Shown in pieces: positions 19,728-24,892 of a stretch of 64,000 nt of DNA. The position numbers and the translations under genes are program-made. The stretch's first letter is position 1. Every line of letters begins with the position of its first letter. Under the pieces are notes generated by a model. That model was not told the DNA's origin and did no database searches. It saw only the letters and a program-made list of their open reading frames with translations. The DNA lies in contig OZ255842.1 in NCBI GenBank assembly GCA_965277805.1, positions 2,528,001 to 2,592,000 on the forward strand. The letters are read 5' to 3'. This stretch comes from Candidatus Lustribacter sp. GTDB taxonomy: Bacteria; Vulcanimicrobiota; Vulcanimicrobiia; Vulcanimicrobiales; Vulcanimicrobiaceae.

Positions 19728-21563
19728 TCACGGTTGCGCTCCGAAGCCGAGCGAGAGCTGCGGGATGGCGGCGACGCAGATGAGGGCGAGGACGATCGCG
19801 AGCAGATAGGGGACGATGCGCGCAACGGCGAGGTCGGGATCGCATTTGCCGATCGCGCACGCGGCGTAATAGCCCGCGCCGAACGGTGGTGAGAACAAGC
19901 CGACGCCCATCGCGAGCACCGCCACGATCGCGAAGTGGACTTCGGCGATGCCGGCGGCCTTGGCGATCGGGAAGAGCAGCGGGCCGAACAGCACGATCGC
20001 GGGGATGCCTTCGAGGATCGAACCCAGCACGAGAAAGAGCACGATTGCGAGCGCCATGAACCCCGCCTTGCCGCCGGGCGCATGCGTGAGGACGGCAGCG
20101 AGCTGATCCGCAAAGCCCGATTGCGTCAGCGCCCACGCCATCGCGGTTGCGGTCGCGATGATCAGCATGATCGCGCCGGTTAGGCTGACGGTCTCGCGTA
20201 ACACCGGATACAGCTGGCGCCAATCGAACTCGCGATACACGAAGATGCCGACGAGCACGGTATAGATGATGCCGATCGTGCTCACTTCCGTCGCCGTCGC
20301 GACACCGCCGAGGATCGCTGCGCGGATGACGAAGGGCAGCACGAAGCCGGGAATCGCGACGAAGAATGCCCATAGGATCACGCGCAACGCCGGACGCGGC
20401 GCAAGTTCGGTGCGATCGTCGCGCGAGCGAAACCAGACGACCACCAGCAGAAACAGTGCGGCCACCGCTGCGGGTACCAGACCGGCTGCAAACAACGCGG
20501 CAATCGAGACCCCGGTCGTCGAGCCGATGATGATCAGCACGAGGCTCGGCGGAATCGTTTCCGCCATCGCCGCGGACGACGCGAGCAGCGCTACGAGCTC
20601 GGGGCGCGGCGTGCCGCGGCGTTCCATCTCGGGGAAGAGCACTGGCGCAACCGCGGCCATATCGGCCGCCTTTGCACCGGAAATTCCGGAGACCAGATAC
20701 ATCGCGAAGACGAGCACGAAGCCAAGCCCGCCGCGCAGATGGCCCACGATGCTCGCGAGCGCGGCCACGAGACGCTTCGCGATGCCGGCGTTCCCCATCA
20801 GGAGTCCCAGCACGATGAACAGCGGAATCGCGAGCAGGATCAAGCTCGAGATGCCCTCGTCCATCCGGTCGACGACCGTGCTCAGCGGGACGCTCGTCGT
20901 CAGCCCGAGGTAGCTCAGCGTGCCGAAACCGAAGGCGAATGCGATCGGGATACCGATCGCCACGCACGCGCCCACGAGCAGGACGAAGAACAGCAGCAGG
21001 TTGACGTTACCGAGCGGCACGAGTAGCGGGCGGCCGAAGTACGCCGCGACGCAGACGACGAGCGCGACGGCCACCACGGTGATGACCTGTTTGCGCGGCG
21101 CTTCGATCAAACGCAGCACCGAGATAAGAAGAAACGCGATGAGTGCAACGACGATCGAGGCAATCACGTCCGAATGCGGGATCCCGAGCACGGGCGTGAG
21201 ATCGGTCTGTTCCTGAATCAGGAACGTGCGGCTCGCGGGGAAGAGTTCGAGCGCGAACAGCGCCACGACCACCGACGAGATCACGTCCAGCAGCGAGGCC
21301 ATCTCGGGGCTCACGCGCCGTACGATCGCCGTCAGACGGATGTGCTCGCGGCGCCGGTAGGCGGAGATCGCGCCGAGCATCGCCAGCCACAACAAGAGGA
21401 TCGTCGCGATCTCATCGGTCCAGACGATCGCGTTGTGGAGCACGTAGCGCGAGAACACGCCGGCGGCGAGGGCCACGACTTCGACGACCAGCAGTACCGC
21501 CGCCAGCGGCTCGGTGAGATAGCCGATCCATCGGTCGACGGTGTTCGTCCAGGAGGATTTCAC
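19728..21563 (-). CDS. TRAP transporter fused small and large permease (DctQ-DctM)
   Basis: N-terminal DctQ-like region (RYVL..WTDE) followed by DctM motifs (LLAIPLF, GISG, IPPS, TATE). Confidence 0.9.
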   Translation of the reverse strand: MKSSWTNTVDRWIGYLTEPLAAVLLVVEVVALAAGVFSRYVLHNAIVWTDEIATILLLWLAMLGAISAYRRREHIRLTAIVRRVSPEMASLLDVISSVVVALFALELFPASRTFLIQEQTDLTPVLGIPHSDVIASIVVALIAFLLISVLRLIEAPRKQVITVVAVALVVCVAAYFGRPLLVPLGNVNLLLFFVLLVGACVAIGIPIAFAFGFGTLSYLGLTTSVPLSTVVDRMDEGISSLILLAIPLFIVLGLLMGNAGIAKRLVAALASIVGHLRGGLGFVLVFAMYLVSGISGAKAADMAAVAPVLFPEMERRGTPRPELVALLASSAAMAETIPPSLVLIIIGSTTGVSIAALFAAGLVPAAVAALFLLVVVWFRSRDDRTELAPRPALRVILWAFFVAIPGFVLPFVIRAAILGGVATATEVSTIGIIYTVLVGIFVYREFDWRQLYPVLRETVSLTGAIMLIIATATAMAWALTQSGFADQLAAVLTHAPGGKAGFMALAIVLFLVLGSILEGIPAIVLFGPLLFPIAKAAGIAEVHFAIVAVLAMGVGLFSPPFGAGYYAACAIGKCDPDLAVARIVPYLLAIVLALICVAAIPQLSLGFGAQP

Positions 21564-21611
21564 GTTCCCGAATCGTTTACCTAAAATGAAGAACTTTCCT
21601 TACGCCGGAGG

Positions 21612-22631
21612 ATGTCCATGACCGACCGCGTTTCACGTTCGCGCTTCGTTGCAAGCGCCGCCGCATCGACGTTCGCGTCGATCGCGATCGTCCGCTCGCC
21701 CGCGCGAGCCGCGCAATTCGATTACAAGATGGCACACGGCACGCCGACCAACATGGCCGTGCACGTGCGCTCGGCCGAAATGTGGGACGCCGTGAAGCGC
21801 GAAACCAACGGCGCGATCAATGTCAAGATCTTCCCGAACAACCAACTCGGCAGCGAGCTCGCGCAACTCGCGCAGTTACGCTCCGGTGCCTTGCAGTTCA
21901 TGATCATCCAAGGCGTGTCGCTCTCGGGCGTCGTTCCCGGCGTGTCGATGGACGGGCTCGGCTTCGTTTTCCGCGACGCCGCGCAAGCCGAATCCGCGTA
22001 CGATGGCCCCCTCGGCGCGTACTTGCGCAAGCTCATCACCGATAAGGGCATCTTCGCGTTTCCGCGCGTGTTCAATTTCGGCATGCGCCAAGTCACCTCA
22101 TCATCGCATCCGATCCGCACGGCGGCAGACTTCGGCGGCTTCAAGATTCGCACGCCGCCCGCACCGATTTCGGTCGACCTCTTCAAGACGCTTGGTGCAT
22201 CGCCGACGCCGATCGTGTTCCCGGAGCTCTATCTCGCGCTGCAAACGAAAGTCGTCGACGGACAAGAGACGCCGTACAGCACGATCGACGTGTCGAACTT
22301 CGCCGAAGTGCAGAAATACCTGAGCGTCACCAACCACACGGCGACGATCTTCTGGTTTCTCGCCAACATGGAAGCGTGGAACGCAATACCGCCGCCGATG
22401 CAGGCGATCGTGTTGCGGCATGCCGAGCGCGCGGCGATTCTCGAGCGCCGCGATACCGAACAGCAGAGCACGGCCACGGCCGACAAGCTGCGCCGCGAGG
22501 GCATGACGTTCAATACCGCCGATGCCGCCTCGATGCGCGCCCCGCTCAAGCCGTTCTACACCCGCTGGAAGGGCGAGTTCGGCGCGACGGCGTGGGATTT
22601 GCTTGAAAAAACATCAGGCAAACTGGTCTAG
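21612..22631 (+). CDS. dctP: TRAP substrate-binding protein
   Basis: FPNNQLG, GFKIRTP, ELYLALQTKVVDGQETP, EVQKY; Tat-like leader. Confidence 0.9.
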   Translation: MSMTDRVSRSRFVASAAASTFASIAIVRSPARAAQFDYKMAHGTPTNMAVHVRSAEMWDAVKRETNGAINVKIFPNNQLGSELAQLAQLRSGALQFMIIQGVSLSGVVPGVSMDGLGFVFRDAAQAESAYDGPLGAYLRKLITDKGIFAFPRVFNFGMRQVTSSSHPIRTAADFGGFKIRTPPAPISVDLFKTLGASPTPIVFPELYLALQTKVVDGQETPYSTIDVSNFAEVQKYLSVTNHTATIFWFLANMEAWNAIPPPMQAIVLRHAERAAILERRDTEQQSTATADKLRREGMTFNTADAASMRAPLKPFYTRWKGEFGATAWDLLEKTSGKLV

Positions 22632-22637
22632 ATCGCT

Positions 22638-22695
22638 TGTGGAAACGGTGAATACCGGTGGATCGCCGTGCATAACGAAAAGTTCTTGTGGATAA
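22638..22695. promoter_or_regulatory. Phased DnaA-box-like array A
   Basis: Perfect TGTGGATAA at 22687-22695 plus co-oriented degenerate boxes at 22638, 22647, 22657 and 22667. Confidence 0.65.
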
Positions 22696-22719: not shown

Positions 22720-22748
22720 TTGCAATCAAATTTCGCGTATGACATCAT
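22720..22748 (+). promoter_or_regulatory. sigma70-type promoter of ncRNA-1
   Basis: TTGCAA-N17-CATCAT with an extended TG; 6 nt to the first hairpin base (A22755), same geometry as the paralog. Confidence 0.55.
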
Positions 22749-22754
22749 GAACTC

Positions 22755-22938
22755 ACGACAAGCGATTGTCGTGCGACTGGCGAGACAGTCGCGGCGAGTA
22801 CGGGCCGCAGCGAGCAATCAAAGCCCCGGAAACCCAATGGCCTTCGACGCCGCACTGGGCTGAGCAATCGGCGCGGGCGTGCGCAACACCAGTAAACTCG
22901 CATGACGAAAGCCCCGTGGTTCGCGCCGCGGGGCTTTC
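22755..22938 (+). ncRNA. Putative novel structured ncRNA, copy 1 (~184 nt)
   Basis: GNRA-capped hairpins, paralogy and compensatory changes versus 23576-23767, upstream promoter, 3' terminator hairpin, no same-strand gene downstream. Confidence 0.7.
22907..22938. terminator. Bidirectional intrinsic terminator hairpin
   Basis: GAAAGCCCCGTGG-TTCGCG-CCGCGGGGCTTTC between ncRNA-1 and a convergent gene. Confidence 0.7.
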
Positions 22939-22943
22939 CGACA

Positions 22944-23453
22944 TTATAAGCCGTTCCAGTCCGTGTACGGCGCCGGCTTCTTCGCCGGCGGACCGACGTC
23001 GATCGCGACGTCGAGATGCGCCGTGAGCTGGATCTTCTGCGGGTCGCCCGCGTAGAGCTGTCCGTCGACCCACACGGTGGTGTGCTCGCCCGGCCGGAGC
23101 TTCGCGCCGGCAACATCCGTGCGCGAGAGCGGCTGCCCCCACACCGCAAAGAACTGACCCAGCGTGTACGAGCGCATCGTCGGCGACTCGACGTGGATGA
23201 TCCCATCGGGTGTGTGCGTGTGCAGCCAGTAGAAGCAGTTGCCCATGAGCGGGCGGCCGACATCTTCAGGAATACCCACCGGTTTGCCGTGATCGAAGAT
23301 CGCGAGGTGCTGATGGATGTGGAGCACGTTGCCTTCCATCTGGTCGCAGTGAATGCCGTCGACCGGTTGTCCGGTCGGCACGCTTGCCGCGCCCGGCGCG
23401 AACGTCGAAGCCGCCAGCAGCGCCGCAATGCAAATGCGAATGATTACGAGCAT
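22944..23453 (-). CDS. Secreted His-rich conserved hypothetical protein (putative metal-binding)
   Basis: ATG at 23453 after GAGAAAGGG; signal peptide; HIHQH, CFYWLHTH and GIIHVESP motifs. Confidence 0.75.
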   Translation of the reverse strand: MLVIIRICIAALLAASTFAPGAASVPTGQPVDGIHCDQMEGNVLHIHQHLAIFDHGKPVGIPEDVGRPLMGNCFYWLHTHTPDGIIHVESPTMRSYTLGQFFAVWGQPLSRTDVAGAKLRPGEHTTVWVDGQLYAGDPQKIQLTAHLDVAIDVGPPAKKPAPYTDWNGL

Positions 23454-23467
23454 ACGAGCCCTTTCTC

Positions 23468-23526
23468 GGTGGATAATATGGATGCCCAGGCGAGCGCGGT
23501 GGAAAACGCAACTTTCTTGTGGATAA
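23468..23526. promoter_or_regulatory. Phased DnaA-box-like array B
   Basis: GGTGGATAA 23468, TATGGATGC 23477, GGTGGAAAA 23498, perfect TGTGGATAA 23518-23526; shares TTCTTGTGGATAACCGC with array A. Confidence 0.65.
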
Positions 23527-23540
23527 CCGCAAGCGCCGTC

Positions 23541-23569
23541 TTGCGTTGTCGGGACGACCGACGTATGCT
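23541..23569 (+). promoter_or_regulatory. sigma70-type promoter of ncRNA-2
   Basis: TTGCGT-N17-TATGCT, 6 nt before A23576. Confidence 0.65.
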
Positions 23570-23575
23570 CCATTC

Positions 23576-23767
23576 ACGCCGGTTTACCGGCGCGCGAGCG
23601 ACGAGAAGCTCGCAGCGAATTGGTTACGACGCACGGCTCGTCCGTTCGCCGCCATCCGGTTCCTCAACGAAGTACGACGCCGTAATGGCCGAGCTGATCG
23701 GCGAGGACGTGCGCAGATCGGATTCTCGTGCTGACCGGCGCCGCGGGGCCCACGTCCCGCGGCGCCG
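23576..23767 (+). ncRNA. Putative novel structured ncRNA, copy 2 (~192 nt)
   Basis: Same architecture as 22755-22938; shared block CGACGCCGYAMTGG..TCGGCGMGGRCGTGCGCA; 13-bp 3' hairpin at 23736-23767. Confidence 0.7.
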
Positions 23768-23776
23768 TCGCGCATT

Positions 23777-24793
23777 TTAGCCTTCGTATGTTTTGGCGAG
23801 CGCGCGCGCGATGATGCGCGCGTGTTCGCGCGCGCTTTCCGGCGCGATGACTTCGCCTTCCGTCCCCCAGCTCAACGACCAGCGTACGATTTCGGCCGGA
23901 TCGGCAACGCGATACGTGATCTCGACCGAGCCGTCGTCTTGCCGCTCGACGCGCCGGTCGCGCGCGACGCTCGCCGCCGCGGCCGCCTTCGCCACGACCG
24001 GCGAGAACCGCACGGTCACGTCGGTCAGATCGGTGCTCTGCCAGACCCCGCTGACCGAATGCGCACCGTACGCTTCGAGATTGAAGTCGGCCGGCCGCTC
24101 GAAGGTCTGCGGCTGCACCGCGACCGCATCGATGTTGTCGATCGCAAACACGCGCATGTCGGTGCGCGCGTGATCGTAGGCTACGAGATAGATCCGGCCG
24201 TTCGAAACGATGAAGCCGTACGGGTCGACGCGCCGCTGCGTCTTCGCCGCGCGCTTGTCGGTATAGTCGAACTGCACGACGCGGTGGTCGCGTTCGGCCG
24301 TTTGCAGCGTCTCGAAGTTGCGCTCGGTCGCCGGCTCGAGCGCAACCGACTCCAGCCGGATGGCAAGCGACGACGACTGCATCGCGGTGGCCGAGCGCTG
24401 GTCGCTCGACTGCAGCAGCTTCGACGTCGTCTCATCGATATAGGCGGAGAGCGTGCCGCCGAGCGATGAACCCAACCGCTTGAGGGTGACGAGTCCCAGG
24501 AGCTCGCGCTGGCTTAGATTGAGCCGCCGCAGGCTATAGCCGTCGGCGAACTTGTACGTCGAGCTGGTGCGGTCGAAATACCACGGGAAGCCGGCGTCGG
24601 AGAGAACGGCGAGGTAGCGCCGCAAACTGCGCGTGCTGGGCGGCTTGTCGTCGGCGATCCGTTCCTTGAGCTCCTCGAACGAGAAGCGGCCGTCGTCGAT
24701 CGCGCTGAGAAGCCGGACGAGGAGGACGACCTTCGGCTCCGAGCGTTCTTCCCTCACGGTAGGCGTCGTTCGGGCGAGCGGGCCCGGCGCCAT
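23777..24793 (-). CDS. HTH-WYL-WCX transcriptional regulator (PafBC/DriD-like)
   Basis: STRSLRRYLAVL HTH; RRVDPYG..YLVAYD...MRVFAIDNI WYL domain; WSLSWG..EVIAP WCX domain; start uncertain (TTG at 24835 possible). Confidence 0.9.
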   Translation of the reverse strand: MAPGPLARTTPTVREERSEPKVVLLVRLLSAIDDGRFSFEELKERIADDKPPSTRSLRRYLAVLSDAGFPWYFDRTSSTYKFADGYSLRRLNLSQRELLGLVTLKRLGSSLGGTLSAYIDETTSKLLQSSDQRSATAMQSSSLAIRLESVALEPATERNFETLQTAERDHRVVQFDYTDKRAAKTQRRVDPYGFIVSNGRIYLVAYDHARTDMRVFAIDNIDAVAVQPQTFERPADFNLEAYGAHSVSGVWQSTDLTDVTVRFSPVVAKAAAAASVARDRRVERQDDGSVEITYRVADPAEIVRWSLSWGTEGEVIAPESAREHARIIARALAKTYEG

Positions 24794-24892
24794 GCCGCGC
24801 AAGGCGTTTGCTCGGATGCTCTGGGGAGGCGCCAATCCTGCGGTAAAGAACTTTTCCTTTCCGTTTTTTATCTCTTGCCGGTAAGGAGTACC

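Follow-up and report, generated by a model that had tools for sequence, protein, structure and literature searches.

What do two similar stretches of plus-strand DNA encode when each is preceded by a promoter-like sequence, ends in a strong hairpin and runs against a convergent gene? This question is raised by a locus of Candidatus Lustribacter sp., a representative of the Eremiobacterota (WPS-2), bacteria with a wide distribution in peat and oligotrophic soils and hardly any cultured members. The window analysed here, to which coordinates refer unless another source is named, comprises 64,000 nucleotides (GenBank assembly GCA_965277805.1, contig OZ255842.1, positions 2,528,001 to 2,592,000). 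The two elements, RNA A (22755-22942, + strand; A type, ~188 nt) and RNA B (23576-23771, + strand; B type, ~196 nt), had been described from the sequence alone as a pair of paralogous, unrecognised structured non-coding RNAs. That description holds: neither element has a match in Rfam 15, their helices covary and contigs from RNA libraries cover both. The elements belong to an uncatalogued family of structured small RNAs that is present in a few genera of the Eremiobacterota. The family is new, has a common fold and is read from the plus strand, and its sequence turns up in RNA libraries from the environment with high word depth.

Two paralogous elements without a counterpart in Rfam

Both elements begin with ACG, 6 nt past a −10-like hexamer (CATCAT at 22743-22748 for RNA A and TATGCT at 23564-23569 for RNA B), and the strings that the original prediction had quoted for this start and for hairpins 1 and 2 were all found at their positions in the two copies. 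The letters of hairpins 1 and 2 differ between the copies while their lengths are equal, a near-identical block of ~41 nt is common to both, and each element finishes with TGAC followed by a GC-rich 13-bp stem, the terminal hairpin (22907-22938 in RNA A and 23736-23767 in RNA B). The view that pairing had been kept despite divergence of the stems is supported by the covariation of the helices over 38 homologous copies. By contrast the RGCGA string, which had been listed as a shared element, shows no conservation across the family as a whole. Aligned with their flanks, copies A and B display a mean column identity of 76%, and both fold better than their dinucleotide shuffles (z −3.32 and −2.97, respectively).

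The search of the whole window with Rfam 15 returned no match at gathering score, in accord with the failure to recognise the elements by eye. When E-values were used instead, only terminator-like matches appeared, of which the best (F6, 24.7 bits vs 46) was confined to the terminal hairpin, and in the corresponding loci of nine relatives the only Rfam match was a spurious one to MIR1437 in a spacer between tandem RNA copies (41 bits vs 168). Within the 5.53-Mb genome BLAST identified no further copies; each copy matched itself and the promoter region of the other copy, the remaining matches being 15-70 nt long. Three places inspected as possible extra copies (genome positions 779,3xx, 5,217,6xx and 2,882,8xx-2,883,9xx) were rejected as coding-looking sequence.

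As had been noted, no same-strand gene lies downstream of either element, the next open reading frames (22944-23453 and 23777-24835) both being convergent. A same-strand downstream gene, as would suit a riboswitch or cis-acting leader, was found neither here nor in the loci read from the three other genera that carry the RNA (g25, g47 and g69). Each element has its own predicted promoter and its own 3′ hairpin, both conserved with the RNA, as in a stand-alone gene for a trans-acting small RNA (sRNA). The elements are not coding, because ATG-started frames differ from copy to copy and the loops vary in length by numbers that are not multiples of three.

A family distributed over four genera

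The covariance model R1 was constructed from 13 orthologue sequences of the genus (g1) and used with a cut-off of E <= 1e-5. The genome searches are samples, and a negative result is to be read as 'not found in those searched' rather than 'absent'. R1 recognises RNA A with 186.6 bits and RNA B with 193.4 bits. The search of related genomes that had been recommended for the pair yielded 38 copies in 16 genomes, which represent four genera of one family. Orthologues of both copy A and copy B are present in other genomes of g1, where the pattern is A plus B per genome, with B only in G005. In g25 all six genomes contain three to four tandem copies, ~290-550 bp apart, while the g47 genome (G067) contains two tandem copies and the g69 genome (G089) a single one. 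As a side observation, the spacers between the tandem copies of g25 (loci L062, L064 and L170; for example L170:1721-1868) carry long GC-rich inverted repeats, which may be REP-like palindromic repeats.

Among 151 sampled genomes of the family R1 gave a match in 12, including G065, whose match (30.6 bits) was judged false and rejected, as only a hairpin-2-like piece is present; none was obtained in 79 genomes from 20 other families of the phylum. A second model, R2, describes a core of 73 positions; 37 of the 38 copies went into it, G031c3 being dropped for its degenerate core. R2 separates true matches (at least 44.8 bits) from all others (at most 29.7 bits). Matches to R2 in G270, G154 and G011 (~29.5 bits) were rejected, because this DNA looks coding and has no promoter motif. 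Cores of the A type (GCGCAACACCA) are found in g1, g47 and g69, those of the B type (GCGCAGAUCG) in g1 and g25.

A covarying fold

The fold consists of two 5′ hairpins (HP1 and HP2), a variable GNRA-capped arm, a conserved arm in which helix P4, an internal loop and helix P5 follow one another, the terminal hairpin and a pseudoknot. In RNA A HP1 extends over 22755-22772 (GCGA loop) and HP2 over 22773-22792, the variable arm is located within 22793-22847, P4 joins 22848-22853 to 22877-22883 with U22880 bulged, and P5 (GCAA loop) occupies 22859-22872. The equivalent features of RNA B are HP1 at 23576-23593, HP2 at 23594-23613, the variable arm within 23614-23677, P4 at 23678-23683 with 23707-23713 (U23710 bulged) and P5 at 23688-23702.

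When this proposed structure was applied to the alignment of 38 copies, 90.2% of cells were paired, and 34 of the 44 pairs were changed on both sides. Pairing is most complete in HP2 (99.6% of cells) and HP1 (98.0%), and reaches 96.4% in the terminal hairpin, in which 12 of 14 pairs have changed on both sides. P4 is paired in 94.6% of cells, with four pairs changed on both sides (94.1% in the core alignment), and P5 in 72.7% in the model alignment and 89.2% in the core alignment. It had been proposed that a GYACG/CGTGC stem closes this region; its letters are present, but the pairing is unsupported (72.4% of cells) and is replaced by P4, in which CGCCGY pairs with RCG(U)GCG through the same 3′ strand. 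Two P4 pairs illustrate the covariation: one is CG in 32 copies, AU in two, UG in two and GU in one, and another is UA in 17, CG in 11, UG in six, AU in one and GC in one.

The pairs also reveal the strand. G-U pairs are frequent on the plus strand, as at pair 287-302 (GC 21, GU 15) and P5 pair 27-39 (UG 16, CG 14), and the opposite strand would read them as A-C mismatches; the RNA is therefore the plus strand. GNRA tetraloops capping stems of at least 3 bp were evident in the minimum-energy folds of HP1 (11 of 37), the variable middle arm (22 of 37) and P5 (19 of 38). A candidate junction helix 5′ of P4 would pair CGA with UCG or AGUUCGA with UCGGAUU in B-type copies and UGG with CCA in A-type copies, the register not being the same in the two types.

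The pseudoknot, which the original prediction had overlooked, is formed between the loop of hairpin 2, with its CGAG core, and the complementary strand immediately 5′ of the terminal hairpin. In RNA A GCGAG (22780-22784) pairs with CUCGC (22897-22901), and in RNA B ACGAGAA (23601-23607) pairs with UUCUCGU (23723-23729). Over the 38 copies the longest duplex between loop and strand averages 6.2 nt, compared with 3.7 nt for shuffled strands. When partners were permuted among copies the mean duplex fell to 5.67 nt, with a maximum of 5.92 nt in 300 permutations. Position by position the core is GC in 38 of 38 copies, AU in 36 of 38 and GC in 38 of 38, followed by CG 35, UG 2 and UA 1 at the fourth position and GC 16, AU 12 and GU 7 at the fifth. 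In one copy CGAG/CUCG has become UGAG/CUCA, and pairing of CGUGAGAA with UUCUCACG is seen in one copy.

Presence in environmental RNA libraries

Eighteen peat or soil runs labelled as RNA hold 0.11-0.14 of the sampled words of a 1201-nt stretch that contains the locus, of which four metatranscriptome runs from four studies (X1, X2, X3 and X18) were used, as Logan contigs. The contigs of these runs cover 22763-22927 of RNA A and 23587-23747 of RNA B, with summed word depths of up to 47,091 (X1), 27,719 (X3), 23,525 (X18) and 4,031 (X2), and include strain variants. The rest of the 1201-nt stretch, namely the arrays, the promoters, the gene for a 169-residue protein and the terminal portions of the genes for DctP and WYL, is without contig cover, which was not counted as silence.

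Eleven listed loose ends of contigs consist of Illumina adapter, which is in a single orientation in all of them. The sequence ...GTGCTCTTCCGATCT precedes positions 22763, 22767, 22771, 23587 and 23588, and AGATCGGAAGAGCGTCGT... follows 23722, 23728 and 23730; one 183-nt contig is composed of adapter, 23588-23730 and adapter. We take this orientation to signify plus-strand RNA, on the assumption of dUTP-stranded chemistry in which read 1 is antisense. The fragments start 8-16 nt inside the predicted 5′ ends, a typical library loss, and are consistent with the predicted starts without proving them.

Predicted promoters and arrays of DnaA-box-like repeats

The predicted promoter of RNA A (22720-22748, + strand) has a −35 hexamer TTGCAA (22720-22725) and a 17-nt spacer ahead of the CATCAT hexamer, with the predicted start at A22755. 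That of RNA B (23541-23569, + strand) has TTGCGT (23541-23546), likewise a 17-nt spacer, then TATGCT and the predicted start at A23576. The same layout, −35, 17 nt, −10, 6 nt and ACG, is visible by eye upstream of most of the 38 copies.

Upstream of the −35 hexamers lie arrays of repeats of the TGTGGAnAA type, all in one orientation, of which no mention had been made previously. Array A (22638-22695, + strand) contains units that start at 22638 (TGTGGAAAC), 22647, 22657, 22667 (CGTGCATAA) and 22687, with spacings of 9, 10, 10 and 20 bp, and its proximal unit is a perfect TGTGGATAA (22687-22695). Array B (23468-23526, + strand) is composed of GGTGGATAA (23468-23476), TATGGATGC (23477-23485), GGTGGAAAA (23498-23506) and, again in the proximal position, a perfect TGTGGATAA (23518-23526). 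Both arrays were delineated from their sequence, from box clusters across the genome and from conserved positions in the 38 copies.

Boxes with no more than one mismatch were counted in the 135 nt upstream of each of the 38 copies, giving 69 in forward orientation and none in reverse. On the two strands of the whole genome 4461 boxes of this kind were counted, a density of 0.81 per kb, from which ~4 would be expected in an equal length. In 36 of 38 copies a proximal box is present, either at −58 or, a helical turn away, at −68, and further boxes are located at −78/−88 and −108/−118. G172c3 (g25) is without a box and G152c1 has only one box, at another position; both keep the RNA. The TTCTT flank, which sits outside the DnaA 9-mer, is conserved as strongly as the box.

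Each of the two Lustribacter promoters has the perfect TGTGGATAA and two boxes with at most one mismatch within 50 bp. Clusters of at least three boxes within 80 bp number 31 in the genome, and a perfect box is present in only five of these, two at the promoters of RNA A and RNA B, two before dnaA and one, at 3,513,563, that was rejected as a further regulated gene because it lies in coding-looking DNA. The words found before this genome's own dnaA are TTGTCCACA, TGTGGACAA and TGTGGATAA. The array words are close matches, like those at dnaA, to the DnaA-box consensus, TTATCCACA, with TTGTCCACA as the form in high-G+C bacteria. In a separate observation, a segment outside the window on the rpmH side of dnaA (C1:4284890-4285070) contains TTGTCCACA, TGTGGACAG, TGTGGACAA and TGTGGATAA near the GC-skew minimum, and is probably oriC.

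How the two RNA genes may work

The best overall explanation, which we favour by a modest margin over disbelief, is that the locus holds two paralogous stand-alone RNA genes that are gated by the arrays and whose products act through a folded core. Each gene would be transcribed independently from its sigma-70-like predicted promoter. A protein oligomer, assembled on the TGTGGAnAA repeats that lie in one orientation and on one helix face upstream of each promoter, would gate transcription, and the level of the RNA would therefore track the state of that protein. From the box sequences DnaA appears to be the likeliest binder of the array, a proposal that we regard as evenly balanced. With rather less assurance, we suggest that the RNA acts via its conserved folded core on a putative protein or other macromolecular partner, much as 6S, CsrB or Y RNAs do, and not through a linear antisense seed. 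It is doubtful, though conceivable, that RNA A and RNA B exemplify, within the Eremiobacterota, an as yet undescribed cross-phylum arrangement in which arrays of DnaA boxes gate structured sRNA genes; DnaA would in that case report replication or growth status through the RNA, or the RNA would feed back on initiation.

Several observations weigh against this explanation or limit its reach. Neither an E. coli-type promoter (9-of-12 threshold) nor a U-tract terminator was found at the locus by a consensus scan, and the promoter call rests for this reason on positional conservation among the 38 copies. The extended motif TTCTTGTGGA was found at no other promoter-like site genome-wide, its six other occurrences not being promoter-like, so no regulon can be read from it. 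This uniqueness, together with the conservation of the TTCTT flank, leaves room for an array-binding protein other than DnaA. In the covariation analysis none of 500 shuffles reached the observed values and slid controls gave at most 44.4% paired cells, controls that overstate significance because the copies share ancestry and part of the structure had been used in fitting the alignment. The A-type pseudoknot has only 4-5 bp; over the family, two of the 38 copies have a single internal mismatch in the pseudoknot and in three its fifth position is unpaired. The RNA evidence consists of contigs, which cannot directly give level, true ends or strand. Finally, direct repeats phased at 10 bp also suit a response regulator of the OmpR/PhoB type, for which such phasing is typical, and an arrangement as siblings in tandem is more characteristic of sRNAs that act by base-pairing.

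The last two points underlie the alternatives that survive best. One of these, possible but clearly less probable than the explanation that we favour, is that RNA A and RNA B are sibling base-pairing sRNAs of the Qrr1-5, LhrC1-5 or PrrF1/2 type, which would act as additive or redundant antisense RNAs, with different targets for A and B and with a core that serves stability or binding of a chaperone. It fits with this proposal that the genes stand alone, each with a promoter and terminal hairpin, that tandem paralogues occur in g25 and G067, and that hairpin 1 and the middle arm are variable between copies. Against it, an invariant single-stranded stretch of more than ~4 nt common to the A and B types was not found, the invariant nucleotides being located in P4, P5, the pseudoknot and the internal loops, and seed-type sRNAs do not usually combine a pseudoknot with as many as three GNRA loops.

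The second alternative, to which we attach a similarly low likelihood, concerns the protein on the array. This could be a lineage-specific regulator of the OmpR/PhoB type, responsive for example to oxygen or phosphate limitation, instead of DnaA, which would make the RNA an sRNA of the stress or starvation response. The spacing of the direct repeats (9-10 bp, on one helix face) is consistent with such a regulator, as are the weaker CGGTGAnnnn units present every 10 bp in G121 and the invariance of TTCTT beyond the DnaA 9-mer. Conversely, the best-conserved units, TGTGGA(T/C)AA and GTGGA(C/T/A)AAC, correspond to the DnaA-box consensus and are the same words that precede dnaA, and the two promoters account for two of only five perfect-box clusters in the genome.

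It is very improbable that the DNA itself is the functional entity, as a DnaA-titrating or regulating cluster (datA/DARS, or Bacillus type) or a secondary origin, with the transcripts incidental. In its favour, the box clusters match those before dnaA in quality, but compensatory changes and G-U pairs make selection on the RNA helices visible, a distance of 1.7 Mb separates the locus from dnaA and from the GC-skew minimum, and the RNA is retained in G172c3 and G152c1, where the box is missing or single and displaced. The locus was also rejected as the replication origin, with dnaA at 4,285,527 and the cumulative GC-skew minimum at ~4.25 Mb against a position of 2.55 Mb for the locus.

Still less credible is a diverged pair of 6S RNAs, the RNA that binds RNA polymerase. 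A length of ~190 nt, the two paralogues, the high word depth and the lack of an RF00013 (6S) match in all eight genomes of the genus searched would each suit this identity. RF00013 gave no match at the RNA A and RNA B loci themselves. Scores to this model fall toward the family, matches being obtained in 11 of 11 f3, 5 of 5 f2 and 8 of 24 f1 genomes and in none of the eight of the genus; the f3 tally includes G048, flagged as unpublished, on which the argument against 6S does not depend. Three g25 genomes that contain the new RNA have, at a separate locus, weak full-length 6S matches that are 92% alike, and an orthologue of this 6S-like RNA is present in the Lustribacter genome (C1:4213144-4213329, 76% identity, E 1.9e-24). 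The segment C1:4213141-4213325 (− strand, outside the window) aligns with RF00013 over its full length (39.3 bits against a gathering score of 46.4; E 1.8e-6 in a 601-nt search), a match missed by the whole-genome RF00013 search at E <= 1, and is a candidate for a diverged 6S RNA gene. Its promoter is without DnaA-like boxes. RNA A and RNA B, with two local 5′ hairpins and a pseudoknot, also lack the rod with a central bubble of a 6S RNA. As a separate diverged 6S gene exists and the fold differs, RNA A and RNA B are not 6S RNAs.

The weakest alternative, that the elements are not RNA genes at all and represent chance similarity, bidirectional terminators, pieces of 3′ untranslated regions, a mobile repeat or small protein genes, can draw on terminal hairpins placed directly past the stops of the convergent genes and on an ATG-started frame of ~31 codons (by eye) in copy B, but is countered by 38 syntenic copies with conserved promoters, only two copies per genome in the genus, frames that are unconserved with indels not in threes, and adapter-flanked 143-nt fragments within the element.

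In the literature on Eremiobacterota and Lustribacter, covered through titles and the starts of abstracts and exclusive of subscription journals and supplements, no paper on such non-coding RNAs was found, and an equivalent survey returned no sRNA gene gated by DnaA boxes. With its good covariation support and its recurrence in environmental RNA libraries from several studies, the RNA family lends itself to the discovery of structure and partners, and control by DnaA, if true, would tie the initiation of replication to RNA-based regulation.

Neighbouring genes

Between the two RNA genes lies the gene for the 169-residue protein (22944-23453, − strand), which has a signal-peptide-like N-terminus (by eye) and His-rich motifs of HxHxH and HTH-like (histidine) form. 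The protein was assigned to no Pfam or NCBIfam family, and its Atlas clusters contain only hypothetical proteins. Its gene adjoins the RNA gene or genes in all four RNA-bearing genera, with a gene for a Liv-type ABC ATPase nearby, an adjacency that may simply have been inherited as gene order and need not signify a functional link. Among the taxa with homologues of the protein (57 loci) are Actinomycetota, Burkholderiaceae and Chloroflexota; a search of 53 such loci from other phyla with R1 gave only terminator-like or weak matches.

Convergent to RNA B is a gene for a WYL+WCX regulator (23777-24835, − strand). In the loci read from the other three genera the neighbours recorded are the gene for the 169-residue protein and ABC ATPase genes. 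On the other side, upstream of RNA A, a LivKHMGF-type ABC operon is followed by a TRAP transporter (19728-22631) comprising a fused DctQM (− strand) and DctP (+ strand), which in this genus separate the Liv operon from RNA A. Since the g25 RNA array directly follows the Liv-type ABC ATPase gene, the TRAP genes look as if they had been inserted into an older gene order.

Comparison with known systems

In organization the new genes resemble Qrr1-5 of Vibrio, LhrC1-5 of Listeria and PrrF1/F2 of Pseudomonas, which are tandem sibling sRNA genes. The likeness lies in paralogous sRNA genes side by side, every one of which is equipped with a terminal hairpin and with a promoter under the control of upstream sites. 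The new RNA differs in having no sequence or Rfam relation to these sRNAs, in conserving a pseudoknotted core and not a seed, and in the DnaA-box-like sites upstream.

The likeness to 6S RNA (RF00013), which is present as two copies in some bacteria, consists in the length of ~190 nt and the high word depth in environmental RNA libraries, while the new RNA folds differently and coexists, here and in g25, with a separate diverged 6S gene. CsrB/RsmZ and the bacterial Y RNAs are also multi-hairpin RNAs that sometimes occur as several paralogues. In contrast to CsrB/RsmZ, GGA-type loop motifs in the new RNA are limited to hairpin 1 of some g25 copies and are not found family-wide.

The raiA motif, OLE, ROOL and GOLLD are orphan structured bacterial RNAs, all of which are in Rfam. 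The new family, likewise an orphan, shares with them a conserved multi-helix fold, a pseudoknot, GNRA loops and a narrow taxonomic range. It differs in matching no Rfam model and in its promoter array, and is shorter than OLE, ROOL and GOLLD.

The nearest parallel to the promoters is provided by Bacillus subtilis, in which sda and eight intergenic regions reported to be stably bound by DnaA (PMC2533591) represent clusters of DnaA boxes outside oriC. In both cases clusters of consensus boxes precede a small gene far from oriC. The Lustribacter genes, however, yield structured RNAs, and their boxes, which strictly share one orientation and are phased at 10 bp, stand at fixed distances from the start; the binding of DnaA to these boxes is predicted from their sequence.

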